Of a stretch of 64,000 nucleotides of DNA, positions 2,346 through 24,893 are shown piece by piece (position 1 is the stretch's first letter; each line of letters opens with the position of its first letter). A program made the translations under genes and the position numbers. The notes under the pieces were generated by a model that saw only the letters and a program-made list of their open reading frames with translations, was not told the origin of the DNA and made no database searches. Location: positions 159,745 through 223,744 of IMG/VR virus record IMGVR_UViG_3300028591_000080, one strand, 5' to 3'. This DNA comes from a virus. Its lineage: Duplodnaviria > Heunggongvirae > Uroviricota > Caudoviricetes.

Positions 2346-2378
2346 AATTTAAGTCCTCCTCTATCTATCTTCACTATT

Positions 2379-2418: not shown

Positions 2419-2427
2419 TAATTTTTT

Positions 2428-2754: not shown

Positions 2755-2840
2755 TCTTCCTCTCTTTATCTTTATCTACATTAATTATACCACAAAAAAG
2801 GTATTTTGTAAATACCTTTTTAATAAATTTTTTATTTTTT

Positions 2841-3380: not shown

Positions 3381-3384
3381 ATTA

Positions 3385-3717: not shown

Positions 3718-3797
3718 AGATATATTCCTCCTTTATCTATCTTCATTATTATTATATCATAAAAAGGCTACTTTGTAAATAGCCTTTCGATATTTTT

Positions 3798-4388
3798 TTA
3801 AATTTTTTTAGAAATGCTGAAATGCTTTTTTTCTTCTTCTACAAATTCTGCACTGATTGTAGGGTAGCCATCTCCATCTTCATCCCACTCATCAGCAACT
3901 TTAACTAATCTATCTAGATCTTCTTCTTTTAGTTCACCTAATTCATATTCTGCATCCTCAAGATAAGCGTTCTTATAACAAATATTACCATCAACATTAA
4001 CTGAGTTCCACCAACAGTCAAGTAATTTACGTAAAGGCATTGTTTCACCAAGAGTCCAGGTTTTAGTATCTAAATCATAATAACAACCTTGATAATAATC
4101 ATCTCTTAAACCTTTTGTTTTAACCTTAGGCACCTCTTCAACTTCAACATCACCGAATTCTAAATTCTCTAGATATTCTGTAATATGTTGGTTATCATAA
4201 TTACCTACTAAAGTTATTGAAGTATCATTCATAGATCTATCATCAGGGTCGGAACCGTTAGTAAAATAAGCATTTTCTACTTCTTCTAATCCACAACTGA
4301 AAATTCTGATTTTTGTATTTCCACCGTATTCACTCTTAGCAATTTCTAGTCTTTTAATTAATTCATCTATAGTCATATTAGTTTCCAC
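3798..4388 (-). CDS. hypothetical protein (196 aa)
   Basis: ORF with own cassette. Confidence 0.5.
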   Translation of the reverse strand: METNMTIDELIKRLEIAKSEYGGNTKIRIFSCGLEEVENAYFTNGSDPDDRSMNDTSITLVGNYDNQHITEYLENLEFGDVEVEEVPKVKTKGLRDDYYQGCYYDLDTKTWTLGETMPLRKLLDCWWNSVNVDGNICYKNAYLEDAEYELGELKEEDLDRLVKVADEWDEDGDGYPTISAEFVEEEKKHFSISKKI

Positions 4389-4605
4389 CTCTCATTTGTC
4401 TTAACTTATATAATCTTCCTGGAATTACATAACGATGATCGCATTCATCGCAGCATCTAGCATCGATATTGAAAGTTGGTTCACAAACATTTCCATTTTC
4501 ATCTTTCCACATCGCACCAGCAGGGTTATTACCAAAGTAATTTGGACATCCTTCCTTTTTAATCTCATTACCACAAATACAACAGAATAATTTTTCTTTC
4601 TTCAT
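4378..4605 (-). CDS. small Cys-rich (zinc-binding-like) protein (75 aa)
   Basis: CCICGNE...CPNYFG...CCDECDH cysteine clusters; promoter with upstream phased A-tracts. Confidence 0.45.
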   Translation of the reverse strand: MKKEKLFCCICGNEIKKEGCPNYFGNNPAGAMWKDENGNVCEPTFNIDARCCDECDHRYVIPGRLYKLRQMRGGN

Positions 4606-4744
4606 AAAACATATCCTCCTTTGTTTTATCTACTATAATTATACCACAGTTTAATTAATATGTAAATACCTATTTTATATTTTTTTAAACTTTTTTAAGT
4701 TTTTAACTTTTTTAAACTTTTTAAATATCCCAACCAGGTTTATA

Positions 4745-4762
4745 GGTGACTAAAAATTTTTA
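4745..4762. repeat. perfect 18-bp palindrome gactaaaaatttttagtc, member of a 4-copy palindrome family
   Basis: Related copies at about 19-38, 15785-15804 and 16279-16300 (agtactaaaaacttttagtact). Confidence 0.5.
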
Positions 4763-4835
4763 GTCTTATTACTGAACCTAGAATCTCGGAGTCTATGCTT
4801 TAAAAAGTTAAAGTCAAATAAAATAAAAAAGCGAG

Positions 4836-5255
4836 TTATTCACTCGCTAATTCTCTATATGTATATCTATAAACTCCTGAGATTTCAAAGTATTCCTCTA
4901 ATGCACTATCTATCTCATCGTCAATAAGATCTCCAGATTTTAAATTTAGTTCAAATTCAAGAACTTGGTTTTCTACTTTACGTTGTAATTCCTCTTTTTC
5001 TGCTTCTGTATCATATTCGAAGAATGAAGGTTCTACGCTAATATTTCCAACTTGAACTTTAACTTTTCTTTCTTTAATCTCAGTAGTTATATCTGTCATG
5101 TCCATCTGTTTAATTATTGCACCTTCAGAAATTAGTTCTTCTAAAGTCATCTTATGTAATTTTTCTTTTGCCTCTTCTACCGAATTCGCCTCGATTTGAA
5201 GATTGCGAACCCACATTTCTAAATTAAAATCAAATTCTACTATCATAATTTCCAA
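4836..5255 (-). CDS. hypothetical acidic protein (139 aa)
   Basis: ORF; minus-strand terminator hairpin gcgagt/actcgc plus T-run at 4812-4834 immediately after it. Confidence 0.5.
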   Translation of the reverse strand: MEIMIVEFDFNLEMWVRNLQIEANSVEEAKEKLHKMTLEELISEGAIIKQMDMTDITTEIKERKVKVQVGNISVEPSFFEYDTEAEKEELQRKVENQVLEFELNLKSGDLIDDEIDSALEEYFEISGVYRYTYRELASE

Positions 5256-5261
5256 ATCTCC

Positions 5262-5471
5262 TTATTTCTCTTCATCATAACTAAATACACCACCACAATA
5301 CTCATATTGTTCTGTGTTAGTGTTAAATTCCAGTTTTTCAACCCAAGTTTTATCTCCTATATTTTCTTTTGCATATTTAATTGCTCTTTGCTTAGATCCA
5401 CGTCCTGTAAACTCACAACCTACGTTATTTTCGTCTACATCACTATGGACTGCATAAATAATTTGTTTCAT
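5262..5471 (-). CDS. hypothetical protein (69 aa)
   Basis: ORF. Confidence 0.45.
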   Translation of the reverse strand: MKQIIYAVHSDVDENNVGCEFTGRGSKQRAIKYAKENIGDKTWVEKLEFNTNTEQYEYCGGVFSYDEEK

Positions 5472-5484
5472 AACTAATTCTCTC

Positions 5485-5820
5485 CTATCTTTCTAAGAAT
5501 ATTCCTAGTCTGTTTGCAGTATCTTTAGTAATACTTTCAACTTGGTGTTCAACAGTATTTCCACCATATAGAATTACATAAGGGTAAGGGTATTCTTCTC
5601 CTTTTTGCCAGAAGTCTTCATCTCTGTTATCAAAAACTTGGTCTAGCATTGGATCGTTTGAAACATACCAAGGTTTATCTAAGTCCCATTTTGTTCCTTC
5701 CCATTCTCCTAATAAATTATCTACTAAAGCTTGCTTCTGTTCTTTTGTTAGTTCCTTAATTTCATAAGGTCCATTCTTTAATAAATCATTCATAATAAAT
5801 ACCTCCATATCTATCTTCAA
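5485..5820 (-). CDS. hypothetical protein (111 aa)
   Basis: ORF with own cassette. Confidence 0.5.
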   Translation of the reverse strand: MKIDMEVFIMNDLLKNGPYEIKELTKEQKQALVDNLLGEWEGTKWDLDKPWYVSNDPMLDQVFDNRDEDFWQKGEEYPYPYVILYGGNTVEHQVESITKDTANRLGIFLER

Positions 5821-5872
5821 TTATATTTTATCACAAAAAGGAGCTTTTGTAAACTCCTTTTTGCTATTTTTA

Positions 5873-6181
5873 TTATTTATTTTTTAATACACCTAAGTTA
5901 TCTCCACTAAGACGAGCATTCCATACGAATGTGATTATATCATTCTTAGTTCTTAATTTGTTTAGAGTCATTAAGAAACGTTTTGTTCCTGCAGATTTCT
6001 TATCTAAAGGCTTGTCATCCATTGCCATAACTAAATCATGAATGTATGCCTTGAACTGAATTGCATTTACTGCACGATTGTTATACATTTGCTCTATATT
6101 TGCGTTGTTTGCAACTAGCACATTAACAATTGTTCCTTCCTTTTCACTTAAATTAACTCCAAAACTCTTATTATCTAACAT
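5873..6181 (-). CDS. hypothetical protein (102 aa)
   Basis: ORF with own cassette. Confidence 0.5.
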   Translation of the reverse strand: MLDNKSFGVNLSEKEGTIVNVLVANNANIEQMYNNRAVNAIQFKAYIHDLVMAMDDKPLDKKSAGTKRFLMTLNKLRTKNDIITFVWNARLSGDNLGVLKNK

Positions 6182-6263
6182 ATTTAGATACCTCCTATAT
6201 CTTTATCTACTATCATTATACCACAAAAAAGGCATTTTGTAAATACCTTTTTTATATTTTTTA

Positions 6264-6998
6264 TTAAATTTTATAACCTTTTTCTCCAATGATTGGAAGT
6301 TCATATTCTCTAACTAGACTTAATACAAATGAAGTATCATTAATTATATATTTATCATTTAGTCTAGAATGATAACCATTTGGAATATGTTCTCTACCTT
6401 TCTTACTTATATGTAATGAAGCACCAATACTCCATTGTTTTTGGAAACCACCACTAGATAATATTGAAGTATCAACTACGTAAGGATGTGAGTCTGGAAA
6501 TAAACTCTTGAAATAATTTTCTAAGTAATCTGGAATTGCAACTCTTACTGAACAATATTCTCTTAAGAATTTTTCTTCTTCATCCATGTGTTCATAATCG
6601 AATTTATTTAAAGTAGCTTTTAGTTTATTAAAGTTTTCGATATCACGTTCAATTTGTTTTTGACGTTTTGCTTCCATCTTTTCCTTTAATTTTAATTGTT
6701 CAAGTTCTTTAGCTTTCTCTTCTGCAATTCTCTGTTTTTCGATTTTCTCATCTTTTAAAATCTGAGTATAATCATCAGAATATTGCTTTATTAACGTTTT
6801 TGTTTCTGAGTCTGATAATTTATCAAGAATAAGACCTAACGCCATATCTCGAGTATTTCCATTATCTTGAACCAATGTTGCCATCACATAATCAGAACCT
6901 AATCTAGTATTTGTGATAGTTAAACCACCTAAATTTGAATGTTCAACCTTTCTATTTATTAAGTTTCCTAAATTTTTAACTAATTCATCTCTATTCAT
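6264..6998 (-). CDS. hypothetical protein with central coiled coil (244 aa)
   Basis: Lys/Glu-rich heptad-like stretch (EKQRIAEEKAKELEQLKLKEKMEAKRQKQIERD). Confidence 0.5.
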   Translation of the reverse strand: MNRDELVKNLGNLINRKVEHSNLGGLTITNTRLGSDYVMATLVQDNGNTRDMALGLILDKLSDSETKTLIKQYSDDYTQILKDEKIEKQRIAEEKAKELEQLKLKEKMEAKRQKQIERDIENFNKLKATLNKFDYEHMDEEEKFLREYCSVRVAIPDYLENYFKSLFPDSHPYVVDTSILSSGGFQKQWSIGASLHISKKGREHIPNGYHSRLNDKYIINDTSFVLSLVREYELPIIGEKGYKI

Positions 6999-7080
6999 AA
7001 TTTAAATCTCCTTTTCTTTATCTACTATTATTATATAACATTTTTATCTAAAAGTAAATAGTTTTTTAAAAGAATTTTAT

Positions 7081-7344
7081 TTAATTTATTTCAGTTAACT
7101 CTATTCTATTAAAATCAAATGCAACAAGTCGTTCACTAACTGTTCCACCATACTCATTAACGATAATTCCTTCTTCTTTATCTAACCATTCTCCAAAAGT
7201 ATCATCGTCTTCCATATAGTTTTCTACTAAAGCTTTAACTTCAACATCAAAGTATTCTTTAGCTTCATCATAATTGTCAAATACTTCAGTTGTCACATCT
7301 TCAGTTGTATTACAATTAATACATGTTTTTACTAAATACTTCAT
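7081..7344 (-). CDS. hypothetical acidic protein (87 aa)
   Basis: ORF. Confidence 0.45.
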   Translation of the reverse strand: MKYLVKTCINCNTTEDVTTEVFDNYDEAKEYFDVEVKALVENYMEDDDTFGEWLDKEEGIIVNEYGGTVSERLVAFDFNRIELTEIN

Positions 7345-7357
7345 ATTGCTTCCTCCT

Positions 7358-7645
7358 TTATGCTTTATGAATTTTATATTTTAAGTAAGCAGTTCCACCA
7401 TTAGTAAGTTGAACCATAGTTTCACCATGATAAATCTCTTTATCAAAATATCCATATTTAAGAGTTTTATCTACATCATCTTTTAAGATTGCTTTTGCTT
7501 CATCTAAAGAGTCTGTAACTCCAAGAATATCGTCTTGAACATATTCTAATTTACCATCATAATAATTTTTAATCTCAATCTTTAATACTATCCACATAAT
7601 AGGTTCCTCCATATCTTTATCTACTATTATTATACCACAACTCAA
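7358..7645 (-). CDS. hypothetical protein (95 aa)
   Basis: ORF. Confidence 0.45.
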   Translation of the reverse strand: MSCGIIIVDKDMEEPIMWIVLKIEIKNYYDGKLEYVQDDILGVTDSLDEAKAILKDDVDKTLKYGYFDKEIYHGETMVQLTNGGTAYLKYKIHKA

Positions 7646-7671
7646 TCTATTTGTAAATACTTTTTTATAAT

Positions 7672-7712
7672 AAATGCAAAAAAAAAGAAGTCCTAACCGA
7701 ACTGGACTTCTT
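7672..7712 (-). terminator. intrinsic terminator (stem aagaagtcc/ggacttctt, then a 9-nt T-run on the minus strand)
   Basis: Hairpin followed by a T-run, read directly; ends the 7862..8641 transcription unit. Confidence 0.55.
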
Positions 7713-7861
7713 CTTATAGTTTTTACTAATAGTTAGAATGAGATTAGTCTGAATCGCATTTAATAGAAAGGAGGAATTATTGACACTATTAGTCGGGTAT
7801 TATTAAGGAATATTTTAATGAAATAAGTTAAAGTTAACTTACATTATATTATACAATATCT

Positions 7862-8641
7862 TTATACGTTTTTGAAGTTATCTAAGCACATTGGCACTAA
7901 ATTTCCTGTACTATTGCTCTCGATAGTTCCAATGATTTTACCATTAGACATCTTTTGCCATAAGAAGCCAAACTTAGCTTTATTATCAGTCATTGCTGCG
8001 GCTAAGTAGCCAGCATTAACGCATTTAAAGTAAGTTAAGTTATCACACATCCATGTAGCAACTTGTAATTGATAACCTTTTTCAATCTCGATAGCTTTAT
8101 CTGCAGCTCGATATACAGCATGAGGACATAAGTCGTTATCTTCTGAATTATCTGACTCTTGACTAAGTTCTTCTTGTTTAGCTTGAGATTGTGCTTCTTT
8201 CTTTGTTTCTGTATATTCATAGATAGTTTCAATCTCTTCTTCAACTTCACCGCCACGACCGTTCACAAGCTCTAGATCAAACTCCAGTAATTTAAATTTA
8301 GTCTTCTTAGGTATCTTAGGTAGATGTTCTATGTTTCCATCCCAAAACGAAATCGCCTTAATATCAGGTCGATAACTACAATACTCTTTAATAATCTTTG
8401 TTATCTTACCTAATTGCACTGCACTTAAGTTACCCATACCAATTAAATGATACAAGTCAACCATGAGAATATTAGTCTGTTTAACTTTCTCTGCTTTACA
8501 GAATTCTTTTGCTTCTAATGCTTGTTTAAGTGTAATATTTTCGATAGGATGGTCTTCATCTATCATTCCGATGTACTTATAACATAAATTTACACGTTCC
8601 ATTAAAGTATCTTCGATCTTTTGATAGGTTTCTTTATCCAT
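7862..8641 (-). CDS. hypothetical protein (259 aa)
   Basis: ORF; the nested antisense ORF 8035..8256 is ignored. Confidence 0.5.
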   Translation of the reverse strand: MDKETYQKIEDTLMERVNLCYKYIGMIDEDHPIENITLKQALEAKEFCKAEKVKQTNILMVDLYHLIGMGNLSAVQLGKITKIIKEYCSYRPDIKAISFWDGNIEHLPKIPKKTKFKLLEFDLELVNGRGGEVEEEIETIYEYTETKKEAQSQAKQEELSQESDNSEDNDLCPHAVYRAADKAIEIEKGYQLQVATWMCDNLTYFKCVNAGYLAAAMTDNKAKFGFLWQKMSNGKIIGTIESNSTGNLVPMCLDNFKNV

Positions 8642-8721
8642 AATTACTAATTCCTCCTTTCACTCATATTTTTATTACATTATCATTATAACATAAAAAG
8701 GATATTATGTAAATACCCTTT

Positions 8722-9546
8722 TTAAAAACTTATTTTATTATTTGAGTTTACATCAGCTTTAGGTTGAGGTATGGAAACCTGGTTTTGAGGAGATAAACCT
8801 TTGTTAACTCTATTATTATTGTTTTCAAAGTAGTTTCTAACATAACTAAAATCTCTATATCCAGTTTTTACAGCAATTTCTAGAAGTTCTCTTTGAATTT
8901 CTTCTTCTGTTGTGTAATAATTCATTTCATCGATAAACATTTTAATTACTACTTTTGTAAGGAATAAGCCACGAGCATAAACACTTTCAATCCAACCATA
9001 ATATAATTCTAATAAAGTTTCAGGAACGTTCATTTGCTCTCTAACTATTCTTTGAAAATTACTAATTATTACTTGATTCTTTGTTTGTCTTTGTTGAGCC
9101 TTAACCTCTCTTTGTTCTTCTCTCTTAACTGCTTTAACTTCGCGTTCAAGCTTCAATGCAACTTCACGATTTATTTTCTTTACTTCAGCATCTAATTTAA
9201 CTAATTCAGGAACCTTCTCTTTAAACTTTCCTTCTTCATCAATGATTATCTGGTTCATCATTGCAGGACTGATACGAATCAAATTCCTGTTGTTTGGATC
9301 GTACTCTAATACATTAATATTTTTTAGTACCGAATCACAATTATACTGTTGAACAAAAGATAAACCTACTTCGTCCTGAATATATTCTCTGTTTACTGGA
9401 AAATATCCATTCTCGTTGTAGGTTCGTTTGTCGTAAACTCGTTGAAGAATGAACATTAGCTCTGTCCAATACACTGCGTTTTCGGAACCTAATAGTCTTA
9501 CTAAAGCTTTATTGACTATTATATTATCATAAATATCTAAGTTCAT
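8722..9546 (-). CDS. hypothetical protein, possibly DnaD-like replisome organiser (274 aa)
   Basis: Weak resemblance in the C-terminal region (GYRDFSYVRNYF); coiled-coil centre. Confidence 0.3.
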   Translation of the reverse strand: MNLDIYDNIIVNKALVRLLGSENAVYWTELMFILQRVYDKRTYNENGYFPVNREYIQDEVGLSFVQQYNCDSVLKNINVLEYDPNNRNLIRISPAMMNQIIIDEEGKFKEKVPELVKLDAEVKKINREVALKLEREVKAVKREEQREVKAQQRQTKNQVIISNFQRIVREQMNVPETLLELYYGWIESVYARGLFLTKVVIKMFIDEMNYYTTEEEIQRELLEIAVKTGYRDFSYVRNYFENNNNRVNKGLSPQNQVSIPQPKADVNSNNKISF

Positions 9547-9568
9547 TCGAATTCACCTCGTTTTAGGT

Positions 9569-10450
9569 TTACTTATTAATATACATTTCTCTTGCCTCAT
9601 TTAAAGTGTTTTGAATGCAAGTATTTAATTGAGTAGAGTTATATTTAGATAAATTAGTCACAGTTTTGTTTAAAAGTTCGATTTCTGAGTCATCTAACTT
9701 AAACTTTTTGATAAATTCATCAACTCTTTCCTTAATTAAATATTTTATCTCTTTTCTTACTGCAAATAATGAGAATTCTGTCTTATTAGTCTTCTTATCA
9801 TACTTATAGCAATCAGCAGAACCAATTGCAGCGATGATAATACCCATATCAAACTTGTTTATTCTGAAAAAATCAGCAACAATGTCTGAAACAGAGCATC
9901 CTAATGGATTCTGTCTTGGATCTTCATCATCTGATAATGTATCTAATAATGTCATTTCATTATCGCCCTTAGTATTCGCAATAGTTTTATCTAATCTTGC
10001 TGTGCATAGGTTAGCTTTCTTCTTGTCAAACTTAGCAATACCACCAGTTAATTCATAGAAATGAGTATTGATAACCATATTAATACATTGCTGTGCATTT
10101 AAATATGTTCCATCTTCCTTAGGTTTTTGCCAAGCTCTATACTTACAAGCCTTATTTAATCTAAATAAGAAAATAGATGGAAGAGATTCATAATCAATAA
10201 CTGTAAAGTCTGATGCTGAATAAGTCTTCTTTACATTATTTAGTAAGTTAATCATAGACTTTCTAAATCTAATTGCTAATGCTGCAAAATAAATATTCTT
10301 ATTATATTCATCATTCATATCTAATGCTTCACAATACTTATTTGCTAACATATTAATTTCCTCTGTTGTAGCCTTCTTAGTAAAATCAATACCAAGTGGC
10401 TTTGCTACTTTTAAACATTCATCATAAAAATTCATAAAATATTCCTCCAA
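9569..10450 (-). CDS. hypothetical protein (293 aa)
   Basis: ORF. Confidence 0.5.
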   Translation of the reverse strand: MEEYFMNFYDECLKVAKPLGIDFTKKATTEEINMLANKYCEALDMNDEYNKNIYFAALAIRFRKSMINLLNNVKKTYSASDFTVIDYESLPSIFLFRLNKACKYRAWQKPKEDGTYLNAQQCINMVINTHFYELTGGIAKFDKKKANLCTARLDKTIANTKGDNEMTLLDTLSDDEDPRQNPLGCSVSDIVADFFRINKFDMGIIIAAIGSADCYKYDKKTNKTEFSLFAVRKEIKYLIKERVDEFIKKFKLDDSEIELLNKTVTNLSKYNSTQLNTCIQNTLNEAREMYINK

Positions 10451-10487
10451 TAATAATTTAAATTTTTTGTGTAAAAACTAGCCTACA

Positions 10488-10889
10488 CTAGTTAAAAGTG
10501 TAGGTAGTCTTTTGTGTTGCTTTCTTGTTGTGAGCACGCTTATCTGCAATCTTCTCAATGTCTAAAGTACCATTAGCTAACTTAGCCATATAAGATGCAT
10601 TAAGTCTTATTTGCTTAACAAACTTACCATCTGATGTAGGTCTTTCTAATAAATAGTAATAACCTCTATGATATGCATACTTTGCTCCTGCTCCTTGAAC
10701 AGTTGCAACTCCAATATGTGTTACTGTCCATCCTTCATAAGTATTACCTACATACTTTGAAGTTCTAGGCTTTCTAGCCATTAAATCTCTTGAACCAAAT
10801 TTTCTTGCCATTTTAATCATTCTCCTTTTTCTTTTATATAATACAATTTTTACAAGACTATTTAATATCAAATGCTTTTTGTATAACAT
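10488..10889 (-). CDS. hypothetical basic protein (133 aa)
   Basis: ORF; Lys/Arg-rich, possibly nucleic-acid binding. Confidence 0.4.
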   Translation of the reverse strand: MLYKKHLILNSLVKIVLYKRKRRMIKMARKFGSRDLMARKPRTSKYVGNTYEGWTVTHIGVATVQGAGAKYAYHRGYYYLLERPTSDGKFVKQIRLNASYMAKLANGTLDIEKIADKRAHNKKATQKTTYTFN

Positions 10890-11178
10890 CTAATCCACGT
10901 TTAGTTGTTTTATAATAGTATCTCTGACGTTTATCATCAGTATTAATATATCTGTCTAACAATCCTGCTCTACACATATCTCTTACTTGATGCATCAAAG
11001 GACACTTTGTATTAGGGTAAAGTGTACGTGAAGTTTGAAAATCAAGACACTTTACTAATATCTTAACAAACATCCTCTTTTTATTTATTCTAGTAAATGT
11101 TGCTTCTGTTTCAAACTTAACTCCATTCACCATTCGATAACCATAATAGTGGTCTTGAACTTGATTTAATACAAACAT
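10858..11178 (-). CDS. putative PadR-like winged-helix protein (106 aa)
   Basis: Wing-like motif R-YYYKTTKRG after a helix-turn-helix-like stretch. Confidence 0.35.
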   Translation of the reverse strand: MFVLNQVQDHYYGYRMVNGVKFETEATFTRINKKRMFVKILVKCLDFQTSRTLYPNTKCPLMHQVRDMCRAGLLDRYINTDDKRQRYYYKTTKRGLDVIQKAFDIK

Positions 11179-11247
11179 ATATTATTCCTCCTTTATCTAT
11201 CTTCATATATATTCTATCACATTATTATTGATTTGTAAATACCTATT

Positions 11248-11571
11248 TTAAATATTTTTTATAGAATATATATTATATTTATTAGAAGCAATAGCTTTTA
11301 AGAACCACTCAGTATCATTAGGATTTACTTGAGAGCTGTAAACCATCTTAGCAATTTCTTCAAAGATTGCTGCATTAGAGTTCCAATTGCAACATCTAGC
11401 TTGCTTAGCTCCACCAGTATAATTTACTACTACAAATTCCTCTGTATATCCTTGATCTTTATCCTCTAAAACTAAATATTCAAGACTTGCAATATTACTA
11501 ACTCGACCAGCTACCACCTTAGATAGATCATCGATAAATTTTATCTTTTCTTTTAATGTATCATTCAACAT
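11248..11571 (-). CDS. hypothetical protein (107 aa)
   Basis: ORF. Confidence 0.45.
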   Translation of the reverse strand: MLNDTLKEKIKFIDDLSKVVAGRVSNIASLEYLVLEDKDQGYTEEFVVVNYTGGAKQARCCNWNSNAAIFEEIAKMVYSSQVNPNDTEWFLKAIASNKYNIYSIKNI

Positions 11572-11662
11572 AATATATTCCTCCTGTTTTATTTACAGTT
11601 ATATTATATACCATTTTTATTAATTTGTAAATACTTATTTTATATTTTTTATAAAAAAGTTT

Positions 11663-12064
11663 TTAGTCATCTAATTTAAAATGTTCTAGTATTTTATTTA
11701 CAATATATTCTGCGGCTTCATAGTATTGATTATAGTGGAAAGACTTTGCATTATCATATGCTTCCTCACCATACTTATTATCGCCTGGCCAATCTTCTTG
11801 CATACACACTAAAATCTCATCTGAACCTCTAGCTTCACATACCCAAACATGTAAGAAACCTTTAACTCTATCTTCATTGTCCCAGTCTTCATTACTAATT
11901 GTTAAAGCTAAACCTGACTCACGACAATTATAGAATGGTTCAAGATAGCCTGATAACTTTTTACCATTATCAATATGCCAATCTAGTTTCTCTGTAGCAA
12001 TGCTCCAAACTCTTTCACTAACTTGTAAACTATGTACTTTATAAATACTTCTACCCATAAACAT
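11663..12064 (-). CDS. hypothetical protein (133 aa)
   Basis: ORF. Confidence 0.45.
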   Translation of the reverse strand: MFMGRSIYKVHSLQVSERVWSIATEKLDWHIDNGKKLSGYLEPFYNCRESGLALTISNEDWDNEDRVKGFLHVWVCEARGSDEILVCMQEDWPGDNKYGEEAYDNAKSFHYNQYYEAAEYIVNKILEHFKLDD

Positions 12065-12126
12065 GTCCTCCTATATCTATCTTCATATACATTATAACAC
12101 AAAAAAGGTATTTTGTAAATACCTTT

Positions 12127-12936
12127 TTACCATCTATCTTCATTTTCTTTTGGAATATATTTTCCTAATATATTTGCTCTAACCCATCTCTCAAGAGTTC
12201 CTTTGTTTACTCTCTTTGTCTTACACCATCTGAATTGACCATTATAAATGTTTCCTAGAGATAGATATTGATAATTCTCAGTTTCCTTTTCAAACATTAT
12301 ATAAGAGTAATCATCTGAGTTATTGCGCTTCCAATAATATGTATTATAATCACCTTGAGGAGTGTAGATTAATGTTTTATCAAAAGTTTTTAAAAACTCT
12401 TCCTTCGCAATTCTTTCTTCTTCATCCTTTACTTCACGTGCTGCTTTATCTTCTAGATTGCTAGCTTTATTATAATCATCATTTAATGGTTTGTATTTAT
12501 CTAAATCTTCGTTTAATACTTCTTCAATCATTTCGAAGTTTTCACATAAGATTCCCATCATTAAATACTTATTTCTTTCGCCAATATTAGTTTTATCAAA
12601 TGCACCACATGTTCCTACATTATAAGTTAATGTTCTCTTATTCTCTTCTTCCTTTTTAACTCTAGAGCTCCAAGGACGAGAGATGTGTAATGAAATGTCT
12701 GTACCAAATATTCTTTGCTCTTTTTCATCTAAAAGACCTACCTCAATATAAACATCATCGCCATAATTAAAATTAATTCTAGCGTCAATTTTTAAAGAGC
12801 AAGTGCTCAATGTCTTAAATAAAGTTGTCCACTTTTCTTTTAATTGATCCTGCATAGCTTTCACAGGTTCCCATTTCTTTTGAGCTAATGCTGTAGCTGC
12901 CTCAAGTTGTAATTTTAATTCATCTAATTTTGTCAT
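12127..12936 (-). CDS. hypothetical protein (269 aa)
   Basis: ORF. Confidence 0.5.
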   Translation of the reverse strand: MTKLDELKLQLEAATALAQKKWEPVKAMQDQLKEKWTTLFKTLSTCSLKIDARINFNYGDDVYIEVGLLDEKEQRIFGTDISLHISRPWSSRVKKEEENKRTLTYNVGTCGAFDKTNIGERNKYLMMGILCENFEMIEEVLNEDLDKYKPLNDDYNKASNLEDKAAREVKDEEERIAKEEFLKTFDKTLIYTPQGDYNTYYWKRNNSDDYSYIMFEKETENYQYLSLGNIYNGQFRWCKTKRVNKGTLERWVRANILGKYIPKENEDRW

Positions 12937-13016
12937 AATAAATATTCCTCCTATCTTTATTACAATTACATTATATCACAAAAAAAGAGGTTTGTAAATA
13001 CCTCTTTTAATATTTT

Positions 13017-13205
13017 TTAATAAATTATATCTTCAATTACTTCCCAATCTGAATTCCTATGAGTTACCCAGAAATCATGTTTGTCTGCATCATTCTTATG
13101 TTCTTCATAAAACTTTAATGCTGACTTACGAGTGTAGAAATCTCGAGACTCATAATCTCCATCTTCTTTATACCACAGTACTTCAAATCTAGGTTCTCTT
13201 GGCAT
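13017..13205 (-). CDS. hypothetical protein (62 aa)
   Basis: ORF. Confidence 0.4.
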   Translation of the reverse strand: MPREPRFEVLWYKEDGDYESRDFYTRKSALKFYEEHKNDADKHDFWVTHRNSDWEVIEDIIY

Positions 13206-13220
13206 GTACTAAGTTCCTCC

Positions 13221-13583
13221 TTAAATTACATATGATGTTTCAAAAATCTTTCCTTCATCGAATTCACCGAATGATTGTGTCACAATAATAGTTCTTACTT
13301 CTATTACTAACTCTTTTGTTCCGACAGGAGGTTTTCCAAGCACGTCATAAATATCTTTAATAGATATTGATAATGCATAAGCCTTAGCATCTTCGACGTG
13401 ACTAAAAGTTTTTAGTTCTTTTTCATATTCCAATGGCTCTCTTGTCACATCGCAACCGTACACATAGACACTATACTTAGTGTCATATGCAACGTCGATG
13501 CCTTCTGGAATTACTCTTTCATCCTCTTCATCATCAAAACTAATATCTAGATCTTCATCTTCAGTTATAATTGGTTCTACCAT
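13221..13583 (-). CDS. hypothetical acidic protein (120 aa)
   Basis: ORF. Confidence 0.45.
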   Translation of the reverse strand: MVEPIITEDEDLDISFDDEEDERVIPEGIDVAYDTKYSVYVYGCDVTREPLEYEKELKTFSHVEDAKAYALSISIKDIYDVLGKPPVGTKELVIEVRTIIVTQSFGEFDEGKIFETSYVI

Positions 13584-13585
13584 TT

Positions 13586-14140
13586 TTATTCTCCTGAGGC
13601 TAAAGTATATTTATGTTGATAAAGATAATTAATCATATCTGACACATCATATTTATCTGTATCACATAAGGTCTTTATTGCTGCATAAATACTCTTTGCT
13701 GTTTTTTCATAAGCGATGTTGTCTAAGCATTGTGACTTAATATAATCTACTGCTTCTTCGACAGCTTGCTCTAGAGAGATGTCAGCCTTATAACAAGTCT
13801 TTGCTGAATAAATATCTACATCAACACCTTTAACTGACCAGTCATAATAACCACCGCCAAAGTAACCACTGTGATATTTACCTTTAGCTTTAGATATACC
13901 TACTCTAGCAATGTAAGTCTTAACATTCTTACCACCGCTTCTTGTATAAATATACAAAGATGTATGTTGGTTCTCTTCGTCTGCACCTACTGTAAGTCCT
14001 TTAGGAAGTAACTTCTCAACCATCTCTTTTATATCACGAGCTGCTTCCCAAGAGCTAACTTGCTCACCACATCCATATCTACTAAAAGGCTTTCCAATAT
14101 ACTTCTCATCTAATAATTTCTTAATTTCTGCTGTGTTCAT
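13586..14140 (-). CDS. hypothetical protein (184 aa)
   Basis: ORF. Confidence 0.5.
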   Translation of the reverse strand: MNTAEIKKLLDEKYIGKPFSRYGCGEQVSSWEAARDIKEMVEKLLPKGLTVGADEENQHTSLYIYTRSGGKNVKTYIARVGISKAKGKYHSGYFGGGYYDWSVKGVDVDIYSAKTCYKADISLEQAVEEAVDYIKSQCLDNIAYEKTAKSIYAAIKTLCDTDKYDVSDMINYLYQHKYTLASGE

Positions 14141-14203
14141 AAATCATTCCTCCATTTATTCTACTATTATTATAACATATTTAAATTAAAATGTAAATAC
14201 TTT

Positions 14204-14746
14204 TTAAAAGAATTTTACAATCTTTTTTCCATGACTAGTGCAATGGAACTCTAGATCTTCGGCAGTCTTAGAGCCTTTCTTACAGAACCAAATAGGTCTA
14301 TCTTCACCTTCTCTAGTATAAGCTTGTAATATATCTTTATTAGCTTCCCATTCCTCTTTACTAAAATATCTACGCTTAGAGTGTGAGATATCTACTGTAA
14401 CTCTCTTTTTATTATTTAGTCTCTGAATGTGCTGTCCATATGCACGCTCAATTTGTCTTCCATACTTTTGCCATGTATAACCGTGATTATTACAACCAGG
14501 ACAAGTGTGTAGTAACTCATGGAAGATTGTATTTTCTATCTCTGAGTCTTCACTTAATAATCTACTAATAGAGATTACATGATCATCCTTACCTATATGC
14601 TGACAATAGCCATTACGTCTTTCTGCTGAGTCTGTCTTAAAAACTATATTCTTAGCTATTGGAATATTAATTGCTTCGCACTTGGCAATGCAATCTAACA
14701 CCATCTTTTCTATTTTATTATTTACATCTGATTTAAAAGCATACAT
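14204..14746 (-). CDS. SprT-like zinc metalloprotease-domain protein (180 aa)
   Basis: HExxH motif FHELLH followed by CPGC zinc-ribbon-like cysteines. Confidence 0.5.
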   Translation of the reverse strand: MYAFKSDVNNKIEKMVLDCIAKCEAINIPIAKNIVFKTDSAERRNGYCQHIGKDDHVISISRLLSEDSEIENTIFHELLHTCPGCNNHGYTWQKYGRQIERAYGQHIQRLNNKKRVTVDISHSKRRYFSKEEWEANKDILQAYTREGEDRPIWFCKKGSKTAEDLEFHCTSHGKKIVKFF

Positions 14747-14808
14747 AATTATATTCCTCCTATATTTTATATTTCTATTATATCATATTTAAATTAATTT
14801 GTAAATAC

Positions 14809-15609
14809 CTAGTGTGCAAAAACTGCAGTAATTTTTCCTGTCTTTTTATAACATCTCATGCATTGGTCGCAAGTCACTTTACTTCTAACTCCTGTTTTTA
14901 ATACTGCTGGACAATGAACTAACTTACTTAATCTCTCTACATCTTCATCTAAGAAGTTGTGATTACGTCTATTAGTGCCATCATACTCAAATACATTGAA
15001 TTGTCCAGGGTACTTAGCTAAAAACTCGTCAGCTTCATGGTTCCATTGACTAATATTTATTACGAAGTTGTCTGCAAGTGTTTTACCACTATTTAATAAT
15101 TCTTCTATCACTTCATAGTTCTTAGTATAAATACTGAATATGATTTCAGGATGTTTGATTGCTAGATCGTTCCATCCATTTAATTGTTCTATGTTTTCTA
15201 GCTCACCTGAAGTATTAATTCTAAACTTAGCTATTTTATCTTTCTTAGTTTGTTGAAGAGTAATTGCCTTATCTAATTCTTCGAATAACTTACCACTTCT
15301 TAAAAGTAAAGTATTCTCACTCCAAGCTTTAGCACATCTGTTATGATGCTGTACTAGAGAGTGGAATGCATAGCAAGCAGCAGAGTTAGCACATTGGCTA
15401 CAGTGCTTTGAGCATGTACCTACTACATTAGTAATATAAACCTCTTCACCAGTTAACTTCTTATAATCCTCAGAGTCATGAACTTTCATTGTAGGTCTGT
15501 GCTCTTCATTACCAGGTACGAAGTTGATATTCCATATTGTTCTTCCTAGCTTATCATTGCCGTGACTTAAGTGTAGTCCAGCTTCATTAAAATCATATAT
15601 TGTTCTCAT
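14809..15609 (-). CDS. putative radical SAM / 4Fe-4S protein (266 aa)
   Basis: CSKHCSQC (C-x3-C-x2-C) in the N-terminal third plus additional Cys pairs. Confidence 0.35.
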   Translation of the reverse strand: MRTIYDFNEAGLHLSHGNDKLGRTIWNINFVPGNEEHRPTMKVHDSEDYKKLTGEEVYITNVVGTCSKHCSQCANSAACYAFHSLVQHHNRCAKAWSENTLLLRSGKLFEELDKAITLQQTKKDKIAKFRINTSGELENIEQLNGWNDLAIKHPEIIFSIYTKNYEVIEELLNSGKTLADNFVINISQWNHEADEFLAKYPGQFNVFEYDGTNRRNHNFLDEDVERLSKLVHCPAVLKTGVRSKVTCDQCMRCYKKTGKITAVFAH

Positions 15610-15884
15610 ACCAATACATCTCCTCTGTTTTATTACATTATCATTATACTACAAAAAATAAAAAATGTAAATACTTTTTTGATAAAAATATAAAAAAATA
15701 TTGTATATTATTATATTATACAATTTTATTATATATTATACGCGCGTGTAAAGGGTCGGTATATTATACTAAGTATCTCCCTCGGCAACTAAAAATAATT
15801 AGTCTCTTAAATCACCTAGATTGAAACATGCACTCCGAGATTCAAGGTCCGGAAGTTGCTCGAAAAAATCTGTAAATACTTTGT

Positions 15885-15900
15885 ATAATATAGTGTAAGT
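15885..15900 (+). promoter_or_regulatory. plus-strand extended -10-like element (tttgTATAATat)
   Basis: Read directly; about 200 nt upstream of the plus-strand terminator at 16095-16131. Confidence 0.3.
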
Positions 15901-16094
15901 TCTAATGACTTAGAAAAATACTGAAAAGTAAATTTACTAAGCAGCCATTCCTCCTGGCTGATAGAACTTATAAAACGACTAAGAGCGAGTGATCCTAAAG
16001 ATATAGAATTTTTCTTTATCTATAACTAATAGGTGACTCGGTACTAGTGGTACACTCTTAGGAAGTTTTTCATTCATCTTTCCTCCTTTCTATA

Positions 16095-16131
16095 GAACTA
16101 GACAATTCCTCCTGTCTAGTTCTTTTTTTTT
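16095..16131 (+). terminator. intrinsic terminator on the plus strand (gaactagaca/tgtctagttc stem, 9-nt T-run)
   Basis: Perfect 10-bp stem followed by tttttttttt, read directly. Confidence 0.55.
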
Positions 16132-16354
16132 CGCCTAGAAAATATTTAAAACCCTACCCGTAGCTAACTAAATTATTTTAGTACATTAGCTAGCTCGGTG
16201 GTCCGTGTCTCTCCAGGAAAAACACCAGCCGAATCCACTGTGATTTGGTCCGCTCATCCTCGCGCCAAAATAAAAAAGTACTAAAAACTTTTAGTACTCT
16301 TACTCTCGCGCACGCGCCTGTACACGCACCCAAAACACTGTAAATTGGAAAACG

Positions 16355-16500
16355 CTGTAATGTCCAAATCCCGGCAATTTGGCTGAAAACCAGGTGGATT
16401 CCAAAACCCGGCGATTTCGACCAGGCTAAAATGCAGTAAATTCCAAAACCCGGTAAATTCGGCCTATAAAAACAAAAATCCAAATCCCGGTAAATTCAGG
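16355..16500. repeat. four direct iteron-like repeats (tccaaaWcccggYRaWttYRg) at 35-41 bp spacing
   Basis: Copies at about 16364, 16399, 16440 and 16477; the local GC content is well above the rest of the window. Confidence 0.55.
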
Positions 16501-16514
16501 ACTCGGATTTTTTC

Positions 16515-17351
16515 TTACTCGTAAAAGTGTATGAAACCGTTAAATAAACCTATAAGATCTTTTATAGAATTTATTCTATTATTATAATTACTCCAGTCAA
16601 GCGTGTCGTCAGTATCTTTTAAATGAACAATACATCTAATACCTAGAGAATTAAATGATCTACTAATTCCACTTATACCATTGTCCGCCCATTCACTACC
16701 TTTAACTAATCCACTGTATGGAGCTTTATTATCTTCGTCAAATTCTCTTATAGCATCAGGTCTATAATAAGAATCTAAAATAAATTCTATTCTAATTAAA
16801 TCCTCTTTCAACCCACCAGCATTCTTTACATTAATATTTACTGTAGTACACTCTTCGTCAGTAGACACGCTAGTAATAAAAGCATTTATGTCATACTTGC
16901 TGGTAATTCTATTCTTATTAACTAATAACCACTTATTAAATAATCCTACAAAAGTATAAAAAACTTTTAGATAACATACGACCCATGCTGTGATGTTAAC
17001 CTCATGTCCGAAGGTTATATACTCGTCAGGAGTAATTCGCTGAGCCTTCATCATGTCCTCAGTAACTCTAGTCGGAAGAAGTATGTTAGCATCTACGTCA
17101 TGATCTACGCTCGAGTTAGCCACTGACTGTCCGTTGTTATACCAAGCGTCATAATCGCAAGTCATTCCCGGCAAGTAGTAATCGTTCTTATCTAAGTATT
17201 CATCGAGCGCTGCTAGGACCACGTCGTCCCAGTAGTCGAACATGACCTTCGGCAAGATGCAATCCTGCACGGAGTTGCTGAATCGAGCTCGCAATTCCTT
17301 GTACGGCATCACGTTTCCGGCGAATAGCTTGATGTAATTGTTATTGTTCAT
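16515..17351 (-). CDS. hypothetical protein (278 aa) with a GC-rich 5' third
   Basis: ORF; the composition shifts sharply (5' third GC-rich) against the 30 % background. Confidence 0.5.
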   Translation of the reverse strand: MNNNNYIKLFAGNVMPYKELRARFSNSVQDCILPKVMFDYWDDVVLAALDEYLDKNDYYLPGMTCDYDAWYNNGQSVANSSVDHDVDANILLPTRVTEDMMKAQRITPDEYITFGHEVNITAWVVCYLKVFYTFVGLFNKWLLVNKNRITSKYDINAFITSVSTDEECTTVNINVKNAGGLKEDLIRIEFILDSYYRPDAIREFDEDNKAPYSGLVKGSEWADNGISGISRSFNSLGIRCIVHLKDTDDTLDWSNYNNRINSIKDLIGLFNGFIHFYE

Positions 17352-22181: not shown

Positions 22182-22922
22182 TTTAACTCTTAAATAATTT
22201 TCACCATTTTTAGAAGGTTCTATTGAATAATATCATTGAGTTGTAAAATATTCATAATCTAGTTTCTTTTTCTTTCCGTTCTTAGTTGTTATTATTTCTA
22301 GTCCATGTATAAAATTATTTATTAATACATTTGATTTATATGCTGCGATCATAAAAATATCGTTTGTCATATCTGCATTTATAGAACAAGAGGCTTCCGA
22401 AATAGAACTTAATTTTCCATCTAAAACATCAAAAAATAATTGACGAACATCTTTACTATCTGACCTATCATTCCAAAGTCTAACAGGATTTTTAAACTTT
22501 ATTATTTTTAATTTATCTAAATTTTTTATTGCAGTAATATATTTATTAGAGTTCTTATTCATAGTATAATTTTTCTCTATATTACTTGTAACACTTTTAT
22601 AAACATCATTTCCTAATTTTTCAAGATCTCAAATTCTTCATCTTGAGTTAGGGCTTTGAACATGGCAAATATAACTTGAAACAATTTCATTCATATCTCT
22701 AGCAGCTTGCATACATGGAAGATATACTTTTTCATAGTAGTCCATATTACAAGTATTATAAAAAGTAACTAAAGAATAAAAGATAATTCTTAAAACCATT
22801 TCACTACCTTTATTAGGAATTCTAGATAGTTTTTTATATCCATTTGCTCAGTTACTAAGGTCTGTTACTAATGATACACTACGGTTTCCATCATTTGGAA
22901 GTCTAATTTGTATAACAGCCAT
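22182..22922 (-). CDS. hypothetical protein, about 246 aa, with 4 in-frame TGA codons
   Basis: Extends track ORF 22233..22562 upstream to an ATG with AGGAG RBS and downstream through its TGA to a TAA; Trp-plausible contexts (LSNWANGY, NSRWRIWDLEK). Confidence 0.5.
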
Positions 22923-22999
22923 TTTTAACTCCTTTAAGATTTTTAAACTTTTTATATATTTTAAATACTTTACAAAGTTTAAATATTTTAAATACTTTT

Positions 23000-23480
23000 A
23001 TTTTTTTACTAATTTTCAACCTAAGTCTGTGTAGAACTTAATTTTATCTATAAAAACTTCTCTAGTTTTACCGTCACGTTCTAATAAGACTCAGTTGCTA
23101 GGATCATTTAATCTTTTCATTCTAGCTTTTTCTGGATCTTTATCATTTAAGTATTCTCTTAATTCTTTAGCTTCAAAGTCTCTTCTATAAGTTAATTTAG
23201 AATCGTTTTCTCTACCACCATAAGATTGATTATAACCAACTAAAGGATTACGTGAATCGAATTTTTTAATTCAATATTGTTCTCTTTCATCTAATTGTTC
23301 TTGAGATGAGCATCTTTCTATTAATTCTACTATGAAGTTTTCTCTTCCATACTTTAACATAGCAGCTTGAATTAATGTTCCAGAACCTTTATATTTTTTA
23401 GTAAACTTTGCTCTAGCATGTTGACCAATATAAATTTTCTTATTTATTAGGTTTGTAGTTTTATAAATATAACCTCACAT
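23000..23480 (-). CDS. GIY-YIG homing endonuclease, about 160 aa, with 4 in-frame TGA codons
   Basis: GYIYKTTNLINKKIYIGQ matches the GIY-YIG motif; the conserved Trp of the ExxxWI block (EQYWIKKF, compare I-TevI ENFWIKEL) is encoded by TGA; GGAGAG RBS. Confidence 0.6.
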
Positions 23481-23489
23481 AAAACTCTC

Positions 23490-23774
23490 CTAAGATTTTA
23501 TTCATGTTCTTTCATCATCAGCTTCTTCATAATCATAATCAGGATCGCGCCTAGGAGCGTTTTGTTCTTTAGGTGTATAAATTAATTCATTCTTTGTTTC
23601 GGACAAATAGGCGCCGTCTATATAAATAAGTTGATGAAATCTATTACGACTTAATCTTCATCTAATATTATTAAAAGCTTTTTGAGGAGAGTCTGCAGTC
23701 GTGCCAACGTTTACTCAAGCTATTTCTCTATCATCTTTATCAAAAACAGGTCCATTGTATGTATAAGCACTCAT
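23490..23774 (-). CDS. hypothetical protein, about 94 aa, with 3 in-frame TGA codons
   Basis: ATG with RBS; reading through TGA gives EIAWVNVG, NIRWRLS, ERTWIKS; ends at TAG. Confidence 0.45.
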
Positions 23775-23852
23775 ACTAAATCTCCATAATAATTAAATAA
23801 TCAATACAGATAATTTAGCAATTATAAAAAGAAAAGTAAGGATCAAATGTCC

Positions 23853-24893
23853 TTACTTTTTATCTCTTAATGTTTCAGCTAATTCCAATACAAGCTTTTC
23901 TGTCTTTTCCCAACCAAGACATGGATCTGTGATTGATTTACCATATACTCCACCGTCTGGCTTTTGACAACCATCTTCAATATAAGATTCAATCATTAGT
24001 CCTTTAACTAATTTCTTAATATCTGGATTGTGGTTCATACTATATAAAACTTGTTTAGCAATTCTGATTTGTTCTTCAAATTTCTTATTTGAATTAGCAT
24101 GATTACAATCTACGATACAAGCTGGATTTTTTAGTTCAGTTTGCTTATATAATTCATCTAATAATTCTAGATCTTCATAGTTGTAATTAGGTCTATTCTC
24201 ACCATGCTTGGTATTATAACCTCTTAAAATACTATGTGCATATTCATTACCTTTAGATTCGACTTCCCAATTTCTATAAATAAATGTATGAGGATGTTGA
24301 GCAGCTTTAATTCCATTAATCATTACTGATAGATTTCCGGATGTAGGATTTTTCATACCAACAGGAATATTTAAACCAGAAGCTACTAATCTATGTTCTT
24401 GGTTTTCAACTGATCTTGCACCGACAGCTACATAACTTAACAAATCATTTATATATCTATGGTTTGCTGGATATAATAATTCATCTGCAGTTGAGAAACC
24501 TGTTTCTTCTAAAACCTTCATATGTAATCGTCTTACAGCAATAATACCTTCAAGCATATCAGGTTTATCTGTAGGATTTGGTTGGTGTAATAGTCCTTTA
24601 TAACCATCACCTGTAGTTCTTGGTTTATTCGTATAAACTCTTGGAACTATAAATATTACATCTTTAACTTTTTCATAAAGCTTTCTTAATCTCTTACAAT
24701 AATCTAATACTGCGTCTTCTCTATCGGCAGAACAAGGACCTATAATTAATAATAATTTATTACTCTTACCACTAATAATATTTTTTACTTCGTTATCATT
24801 AGCTTCCTTTACTTTAACTAAATCTTCTCTTAATGGAAACATCTCTTTAATTTCCATTGGTATTGGAAGCTTACGTTTAAATTCCATATTCAT
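23853..24893 (-). CDS. 3-deoxy-7-phosphoheptulonate (DAHP) synthase, class I alpha (AroG-like)
   Basis: Collinear with E. coli AroG: LLLIIGPCS, KPRTT, GARSVENQEHR, CIVDCNHANS, GKSITDPCLGWE. Confidence 0.8.
   Translation of the reverse strand: MNMEFKRKLPIPMEIKEMFPLREDLVKVKEANDNEVKNIISGKSNKLLLIIGPCSADREDAVLDYCKRLRKLYEKVKDVIFIVPRVYTNKPRTTGDGYKGLLHQPNPTDKPDMLEGIIAVRRLHMKVLEETGFSTADELLYPANHRYINDLLSYVAVGARSVENQEHRLVASGLNIPVGMKNPTSGNLSVMINGIKAAQHPHTFIYRNWEVESKGNEYAHSILRGYNTKHGENRPNYNYEDLELLDELYKQTELKNPACIVDCNHANSNKKFEEQIRIAKQVLYSMNHNPDIKKLVKGLMIESYIEDGCQKPDGGVYGKSITDPCLGWEKTEKLVLELAETLRDKK

Follow-up and report, generated by a model that had tools for sequence, protein, structure and literature searches.

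Candidate anti-ribosome-binding-site RNA in a conserved intergenic spacer of a large uncultured rumen phage

The c4 antisense RNA of phages P1 and P7 is about 77 nt long, is processed from the transcript of its own target and controls one operon (icd-ant). Host-encoded RNAs such as S. aureus RNAIII, RsaE/RoxS and the streptococcal csRNAs pair with the Shine-Dalgarno (SD) sequences of many mRNAs through seeds of the UCCC or CCUCC type. In T4 early mRNAs are shut off at their ribosome-binding sites (RBSs) by the repressor protein RegA and by RegB, a nuclease cutting at GGAG, and in lambda the small oop RNA lies beside the replication origin. To our knowledge, hardly any regulatory RNAs have been charted in virulent and giant phages, and the phage antisense RNAs known to us act on a single gene or operon. 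The pre-early genes of T5 are headed by iss, a conserved untranslated region of 1–1.7 kb that is rich in repeats and palindromes, carries paired DnaA boxes and lies inside the terminal repeat (bioRxiv 10.1101/866236). Here we analyse a spacer of 905 bp (15610–16514) in a 64,000-nt stretch of the IMG/VR virus record IMGVR_UViG_3300028591_000080 (positions 159,745–223,744 of that record), which we call the window and to which all coordinates refer. The source is an uncultured rumen phage of ~240 kb whose host probably belongs to the Firmicutes.

We tentatively read this spacer as a lineage-specific control region that heads a promoter-dense cluster of early genes, and the non-coding RNA predicted within it as a trans-acting anti-RBS RNA on early mRNAs, its pairing and effect being inferred; our confidence in the two taken jointly falls a little short of even. 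The RNA is apparently under stronger constraint than the adjacent proteins, and its exposed motifs are predicted to fit the whole family of early RBSs.

The predicted plus-strand RNA

The spacer separates an open reading frame (ORF) of 278 aa (16515–17351, minus strand) from an ORF of the GP88 family (14809–15609, minus strand), and it contains no credible ORF, in agreement with an earlier note on this DNA that had described it as a gene-free hub. Its sole long ORF, of 97 aa (TTG start, 16190–16483, minus) and crossing the repeats described below, was rejected because a 1-nt indel breaks the frame in three strains. All ORFs of at least 100 aa in the window are on the minus strand, apart from two that overlap longer minus-strand ORFs. 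The predicted RNA, of ~235 nt (~15896–16131, plus), would be transcribed in the direction opposite to every protein gene and is indicated by a promoter, a terminator, its fold and its conservation. It has no plus-strand ORF under any genetic code, with TAA, TAG and TGA present in each of the three frames (15897–16132).

Promoters of two classes recur in the window. Class 1 is of the sigma-A type and reads TTTACA-N17-TATAAT with TGTG upstream (also written TTTACA-N17-TGnTATAAT). All 20 copies are on the minus strand, 16 of them between 697 and 15671 at about one per small gene and four in the remaining 48 kb; the first of the 16 lies at 15643–15671 (minus), and the minus-strand block 1–15671 looks like a set of early or host-takeover genes. 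Class 2, TTGTATAATATAATGTAA, is without a -35 element and frequently stands directly after a terminator hairpin. It has 15 matches in the window at up to three mismatches versus 1.3 expected, 13 of which are on the minus strand and precede genes (for example 7839–7856, 37593–37610 and 63003–63020). The class-2 core GTATAATATA has 11 exact minus-strand copies and one exact plus-strand copy, the latter in the spacer. This copy belongs to the putative RNA promoter (TTGTATAATATAgTGTAA, 15881–15898, plus, with TATAAT at 15884–15889), the only good plus-strand class-2 copy in the window, which departs from the 18-nt consensus at a single position; the plus-strand element TGTATAAT picked out in the earlier note is this class-2 copy. 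A weak -35-like TCGAAA is present at 15860–15865, and across strains an invariant -10 is combined with a -35 of TCGAAA or TTGAAA at a spacing of 17–18 nt. The early-promoter consensus of phage AR9 was considered for the class-2 motif and rejected, as it has no match in the right orientation.

The predicted RNA ends in an intrinsic terminator (16094–16131, plus; hairpin 16094–16123) with a perfect 11-bp stem, the loop AUUCCUCC and a T-run, invariant in 10 sequences. A strict scan of the 64 kb returned two plus-strand terminators, one of them bidirectional and the other this hairpin with its T-run, so that the plus-strand terminator noticed earlier is the only one-directional one in the window. 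Taken together, the promoter and terminator scans leave the window with a single convincing plus-strand start and a single convincing stop, correctly ordered and separated by ~200 nt.

The RNA is predicted to fold at -64.5 kcal/mol (z = -5.3, centroid identical to the minimum-free-energy structure), with z = -3.5 for the complementary strand, into a 5′ three-way or multibranch domain, a long domain-2 stem, a single-stranded linker of 24 nt and the terminator hairpin. The fold exposes the three motifs that had been recognised as anti-SD-like. These are CCUCC sequences in the loop of the hairpin CAGCC-AUUCCUCCU-GGCUG (15950–15954, plus; unpaired probability 1.00), in the linker UUUCCUCCUUUCUAU (16082–16086, plus; 0.97) and in the terminator loop (16108–16112, plus; 1.00). 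Since every gene is encoded by the minus strand, these three motifs can also be read there as AGGAGG SD sequences, a point missed earlier, and one of them precedes an ORF of 32 codons. The tip of domain 2 (15997–16036, plus) is hypervariable: three sharply distinct alleles are carried by near-identical RNAs, with the variation flanking an invariant stretch of 14 nt, UUUUCUUUAUCUAU. This tip may be a determinant of specificity or a recombination hot spot.

Divergence was measured against four diverged strains (L029, L030, L096 and L097). Third-codon positions of the GP88 gene differ by 13.5–16.5% and first and second positions by ~2%. Outside the 40-nt tip, which diverges by 25–30%, the RNA shows 1–2 differences in 196 positions (0.5–1%) versus 14–17% at synonymous sites. 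The repeats diverge by 4–8%, two to three times more slowly than synonymous sites, and the GC-rich block by 3–7%, and both 15770–15896 and a hairpin at 16133–16197 are near neutral. Covariation of CCACC/CUGG with GGGU/CCGG around the hairpin at 16163–16197 was considered and rejected, as all four combinations occur. The spacer is intact in strains whose adjacent 278-aa gene is a pseudogene, and this observation combined with the divergences by segment identifies the RNA body as the most constrained sequence of the region. An alignment of 10 RNA sequences (nine distinct) from independent samples keeps 97% of pair cells across the nine. One pair in the stem of the first CCUCC hairpin goes from C-G through U.G to U-A, and among the variable pairs five can still pair, via G.U, if the plus strand is the RNA but not if the minus strand is, versus one for which the reverse holds. 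As a predicted gene, the anti-SD-bearing small regulatory RNA suggested in the earlier note is thus well supported by its promoter, terminator, lack of an ORF, fold, plus-strand wobble and conservation, and by the complementarity to the early cassette set out below.

The spacer is present in every close strain at 88–99% identity per 100 bp. Sixty remoter phages carrying GP88 (~55% identity or less) have short gaps upstream of that gene and no similarity to the spacer, and gave no deeper set for covariation. Rfam gave no match, either over the whole window at the gathering threshold or over 15400–16700 at E up to 10, where only chance matches (E > 3) appeared, and a scan for transfer and transfer-messenger RNAs found none. 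With the spacer as query, blastn returned only A+T-rich promoter noise from GenBank phages and from PLSDB plasmids, and scans of IMG/VR with both flanking proteins and the repeat returned no relatives, only single chance matches. A two-repeat pattern run over 185,579 genomes and IMG/VR gave, among the matches listed, only chance matches and coding Gly-Phe repeats, and nhmmer profiles of the RNA and of the whole spacer found no remote homologues among all fetched loci. On sequence comparison, the spacer element is a clade-specific invention or acquisition, found in one phage clade.

Complementarity to early start regions

Genes of the early cluster have a common start cassette of 5′ untranslated region (UTR) and RBS, variously given as AGATAGATAAAGGAGGAAT, AGAUAGAUAAAGGAGGAAU, aAGATAGATAAAGGAGGAATatattATG or AAGATAGATAAAGGAGGAAT, with examples at the minus-strand start regions 3731, 11191 and 12951. 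The 15.6-kb early cluster contains 12 instances of the form GGAGGAAT versus two in the other 47.5 kb, and TAGATAAAG is six-fold denser inside the cluster. Outside it, the GGAGG-bearing genes have GGAGGT more often than any other form; two RBS 'dialects', the early cassette and GGAGGT, are present in one genome. Three AUUCCUCC/UUUCCUCCUUUCU motifs are left unpaired in the RNA and, together with the apical UUUUCUUUAUCUAU, complement the early cassette. More specifically, AUUCCUCC(U), present in both hairpin loops of the RNA, complements (A)GGAGGAAU exactly, and the invariant stretch of the tip complements the early 5′ UTR motif AUAGAUAAAG.

Duplexes predicted between the four exposed regions of the RNA and gene start regions had a mean energy of -17.1 kcal/mol for 33 early genes versus -12.3 kcal/mol for 77 others (p = 3e-11), whereas a control probe with the 16S tail separated early from other genes by only 1.6 kcal/mol. 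In a further comparison confined to GGAGG-bearing genes, CCUCC was kept fixed and the flanks were shuffled 200 times per probe. The real probe was equalled by 0/200 shuffles for the terminator loop, 3/200 for the linker, 13/200 for loop 1 and 1/200 for the motif-free tip. A first target scan with a single probe gave no clear outlier gene. It is on the duplex energies and the flank shuffles that we base the proposal of an anti-RBS RNA acting on early mRNAs.

In the proposed mechanism, the RNA would be transcribed from the class-2 promoter, would stop at its own terminator and, once made, would base-pair with early RBSs and may pair also with read-through sense RNA; pairing would stop ribosome entry or cause cleavage, and early genes would be turned down. 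In the remainder of the spacer, two tandem minus-strand terminators would close the upstream operon, namely T1 of the 278-aa gene (16463–16512; -20.4 kcal/mol on the minus strand versus -9.8 on the plus), in which repeat copy 1 forms the 3′ arm, and the invariant T2 (16267–16297; GTACTAAAA/TTTTAGTAC followed by TTTTTTATTTT). Three tandem class-2 cores of the GTACTAATATA type (15712–15769, minus, upstream of the GP88 gene) and the class-1 promoter at 15643–15671 would then open the early cluster. What had been taken for a palindrome at 16279–16300 is better read as the stem of T2 (16278–16297).

Several observations weigh against an anti-RBS role. Class-2 promoters are defined as a class solely by the recurrence of their motif. 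Covariation in the RNA is not significant, since its value was reached in 216 of 500 shuffles and there is only one double-sided change; the test is weak because the strains are too closely related. The early RBS cassette itself stands three times on the minus strand of the spacer, in one case followed by an ATG and the 32-codon ORF, and the complementarity could be a by-product, since any antisense of these copies would match. Early genes generally have stronger SD cores as well, and the anti-RBS model leaves the repeats and the GC-rich block unexplained.

A bolder extension, which we consider rather unlikely, is that one multi-headed RNA serves as a global translational off-switch for the whole early block of a large lytic phage (~12–23 genes), an RNA counterpart of T4 RegA/RegB that evolved as the antisense of duplicated RBS cassettes, with the five-site dyad array as a timing switch or origin. 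If the anti-RBS role itself were confirmed, it would amount to the temporal shut-off of a whole gene class by one RNA, and the RNA would be a compact and portable anti-RBS tool. It would also supply a rule for finding such RNAs in metagenomic phages, namely an antisense of a shared RBS cassette between a lone opposite-strand promoter and terminator.

Repeats, alternative explanations and surroundings

The four iterons of the earlier note are real direct repeats, starting at 16363, 16400, 16442 and 16479; their spacing is 37/42/37 bp rather than the 35–41 bp given, and a fifth, inverted copy had been missed. None of the copies is assigned to a strand. The direct copies are copy 1 (16479–16499, sense CUGAAU-UUACCGGG-AUUUGG), copy 2 (16442–16462), copy 3 (16400–16420) and copy 4 (16363–16383, with perfect 6-bp arms CCAAAT/ATTTGG), and inverted copy 5 (16229–16248, CCGAAT-CCACTGTG-ATTTGG) lies inside the near-invariant GC patch. 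The repeat pattern has five matches in the window, four of them the direct repeats, versus 0.01 expected. Half-sites CC[A/G]AA[T/A] are conserved in all five sites and each direct copy is an imperfect dyad CCRAAW-N7/8-WTTYGG, with a within-site spacer that is conserved among the four direct copies and different in the inverted one. The dyad CCRAAW-N6-9-WTTYGG is found nowhere else in the 64 kb (six matches over both strands versus 0.2 expected). The five sites are most simply explained as putative binding sites for a protein, and the array forms a separate conserved DNA or RNA element. Readings as Spo0A, CodY or DnaA boxes gave only partial matches by eye and were dropped. An array of clustered regularly interspaced short palindromic repeats (CRISPR), or solitary units of one, was also rejected: CRISPR repeats measure 23–47 nt with spacers of similar size, the core here is ~21–23 nt with spacers of 14–19 nt, and the collection scans gave, among the matches listed, only chance matches or coding repeats.

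Alternatively, the plus-strand unit may be a cis-only insulator that collides or pairs with upstream read-through and so backs T1 and T2, the CCUCC motifs being a passive mirror of old RBS cassettes and there being no targets in trans. Consistent with this, the two minus-strand terminators stand in tandem just upstream, the RNA forms a perfect antisense of three RBS-like sense-strand motifs, and the stretch from T2 to the 32-codon ORF yielded no promoter for the sense strand. A roadblock needs only a promoter and a terminator, however, yet the whole RNA body is held at 0.5–1% divergence, the fold leaves all three CCUCC motifs unpaired and the motif flanks suit early start regions better than shuffled flanks do, so that we regard the insulator as unlikely. 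The 32-codon ORF (15979–16077, minus, antisense to the RNA) suggests a type I toxin-antitoxin or small-protein locus, in which it would be a real gene and the plus-strand RNA its antisense antitoxin. It has a perfect SD (AAAGGAGG) 4 nt (or 8 nt) before its ATG, and the convergent RNA spans its full length. Its first 14 codons are invariant including synonymous sites, but codons 15–18 change from HLLV to FQIA, a 1-nt deletion shifts the frame in L029 and L097 to give 77 and 68 codons, and the invariant RNA block reaches 80 nt past the ORF. The peptide MNEKLPKSVPLVPSHLLVIDKEKFYIFRITRS is without a membrane-spanning stretch (hand translation), the search downstream of T1 and T2 turned up no promoter that could serve the ORF, and no family match was found for it. 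The ORF is probably not a conserved protein, and a toxin-antitoxin locus is scarcely credible.

A replication origin or plasmid-type partition site, also proposed in the earlier note, would make the dyad repeats iterons for an initiator or centromere protein and let the plus-strand transcript activate or prime replication, in the manner of the transcripts at the T4 oriF/oriG, ColE1 and lactococcal phage c2 origins. The repeats are unique to the site, have dyads like those of the lambda iterons and, as four direct copies and one inverted, include the three or more direct repeats of 17–22 bp by which iteron origins are recognised; they also diverge more slowly than synonymous sites. An almost pure A+T block of ~130 bp lies at 15640–15740, the non-coding promoter-terminator unit adjoins the repeats, and the magnitude of the GC skew falls from -0.3 to -0.07 across the spacer. 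Even so, the cumulative skew has no extremum here within the 64-kb window, the repeat spacing is not helically phased, and the A+T block is ~600 bp off the repeats and occupied by four promoters, with no such unwinding block adjacent to them. No Rep or Par family (Pfam, PHROG) was found among ten neighbouring proteins and no plasmid similarity in PLSDB (blastn). Nor is the adjoining 278-aa protein supported as an initiator, being an ORFan with 2 matches in 1.84 billion representatives, a poor AlphaFold model (predicted local distance difference test, pLDDT, 41) and no DNA-binding or Rep/Par signature found, and its gene is a pseudogene in some strains. The RNA body is also far more conserved than a primer transcript needs, and an origin or partition site is in our view unsupported and distinctly unlikely. 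The direct repeats might instead work at the RNA level, as hairpins that serve stability or processing in a long structured 3′ tail on the transcript of the upstream operon. Each copy can form a 5–6-bp stem (YYRAAW/WUUUGG) in which the mismatches of copies 1–3 become G.U on the minus strand only, so that small hairpins are favoured on the minus strand for copies 1–4 and on the plus strand for copy 5. Single copies fold at -2.9 to -6.3 kcal/mol as minus-strand RNA versus -1.5 to -3.3 as plus-strand RNA, the right half of the spacer (16130–16520) folds with z = -6.4 versus -3.1, the consensus fold is -114 versus -70, and in L029 a double change in copy 3 restores CCAAA/UUUGG in a shifted register. 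These hairpins are nevertheless weak, the minus strand is G+U-rich genome-wide and favours such folds anyway, and the repeats lie downstream of the strong T1. Arm sequence is conserved rather than covarying and one copy is inverted, folding better on the other strand; with the array behind a strong terminator, this leads us to rank protein-binding DNA sites slightly above RNA hairpins, which we hold to be quite improbable. A cis-acting DNA landmark, such as a long-terminal-repeat boundary or a region for injection stop or packaging, appears very improbable. The spacer coincides exactly with the start of the dense series of 16 sigma-A-type promoters and small genes, is ~24 kb from the contig end in one 243.9-kb scaffold and, being conserved, untranslated and rich in repeats, fits how the T5 iss region is described (bioRxiv 10.1101/866236). 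There is no cluster of DnaA boxes (best matches 6/9, read from the sequence), at least eight independent assemblies run through the spacer while another contig goes 37 kb past it, and the strongest constraint is on the RNA body rather than on the repeats.

The spacer also differs from the window in composition. G+C content is 26–30% in the window, and the GC-rich segment regarded earlier as unlike the rest is borne out, 16176–16427 being the only non-coding stretch at 50% G+C or more in 80-nt windows, against a background of 28%. Of the CCGG, CCSGG and CGCG sites in the window, the spacer holds 5/16, 4/7 and 5/8, respectively. The GC patch includes a near-invariant block at 16198–16266 (2–5 differences per 70 nt) and a CG tract of alternating purines and pyrimidines at 16310–16329, an imperfect inverted repeat of a partner tract at 15741–15758 amid the promoter copies (all three without strand assignment). 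The two tracts, ~560 bp apart, bracket the spacer core and have a composition of the Z-DNA type, with a perfect CGCGTACGCG in L097. The palindrome family proposed in the earlier note is partly upheld. A conserved palindrome, GGCAACTAAAAATAATTAGT (15784–15803, strand unassigned), is repeated exactly over 20 nt at 15–34 and has a relative at 4747–4764, whereas the loose pattern shows no enrichment over the window (8 matches versus 5.15 expected). The three copies share an intergenic module, (TATAGG/CTCGG)-YR-ACTAAAAAWWWTTAGTY followed 13–16 nt on by CCTAG, located between a terminator and the next promoter, which could be an operator or a processing site. A likeness of ACGCGCGTATAAT to the N15 telomere core was rejected, as the local sequence is not a palindrome.

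Flanking proteins of the spacer have exact copies on rumen-type metagenome contigs of 75.5, 230 and 243.9 kb, and the strong AGGAGG RBSs and sigma-A-type promoters fit a Firmicutes host. The window encodes a DNA ligase, an RNA ligase, a CCA-adding enzyme, a NAPRTase, a NUDIX protein, a DAHP synthase and a helicase. For the ligase, the closest relatives in culture come from large phages of Geobacillus, Clostridioides and Bacillus, at identities below 40%. The GP88-family protein (PF17338) has an invariant CxxxCxxC followed by C-Y (C66, C70, C73, C79) and a C-terminal cluster (C233, C247, C250, C253), cysteines that suggest metal or Fe-S binding. The 278-aa protein contains a hydrophobic helix. 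Its gene is truncated or has an internal stop in L030, L096 and L097, and is a pseudogene in L097; the 5′ part is GC-rich (17093–17338, at least 50% G+C) and the 3′ third highly variable (58–75% identity), and it may be a decaying foreign gene. Two more stretches of 0.9–1.05 kb are without a minus-strand ORF of at least 45 aa (22800–23852 and 46615–47475), with a bidirectional terminator at 23836–23856; neither an Rfam match nor notable repeats were seen in them.

Comparison with known systems

Among described loci, T5 iss resembles the spacer in heading an early cluster and in a conservation above that of coding DNA; the spacer differs in that no DnaA boxes were found and the strongest constraint falls on an RNA gene. 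With the iteron origins of lambda and plasmids it shares four direct repeats of ~20 bp with internal dyads, a non-coding or regulatory setting and a small opposite RNA nearby. Unlike in these origins, its repeats recur at 37–42 bp out of phase, and no initiator gene overlapping or adjoining them, adjacent unwinding element or skew signal within the 64-kb window was found.

As regards outcome, the proposed silencing of early SD and start regions would be alike to that brought about by T4 RegA and RegB, the agent here being an RNA and the likeness one of function only. The C/U-rich-loop RNAs of Firmicutes are similar in carrying seeds in several loops or linkers and an intrinsic terminator at the end, but no covariance model matched at E up to 10 and the seed flanks of the phage RNA fit a phage-specific RBS cassette. 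The c4 RNA of P1 and P7 shows neither sequence similarity nor an Rfam match to this one. Both are phage-encoded small RNAs whose exposed loops pair over an RBS, here by prediction, in an mRNA made elsewhere from the region. In contrast to c4, however, the RNA described here is ~235 nt long, is flanked, on the opposite strand, by a promoter and a terminator of its own, and combines three anti-SD motifs with a UTR-matching tip, by which its candidate targets extend to 12–23 early genes.

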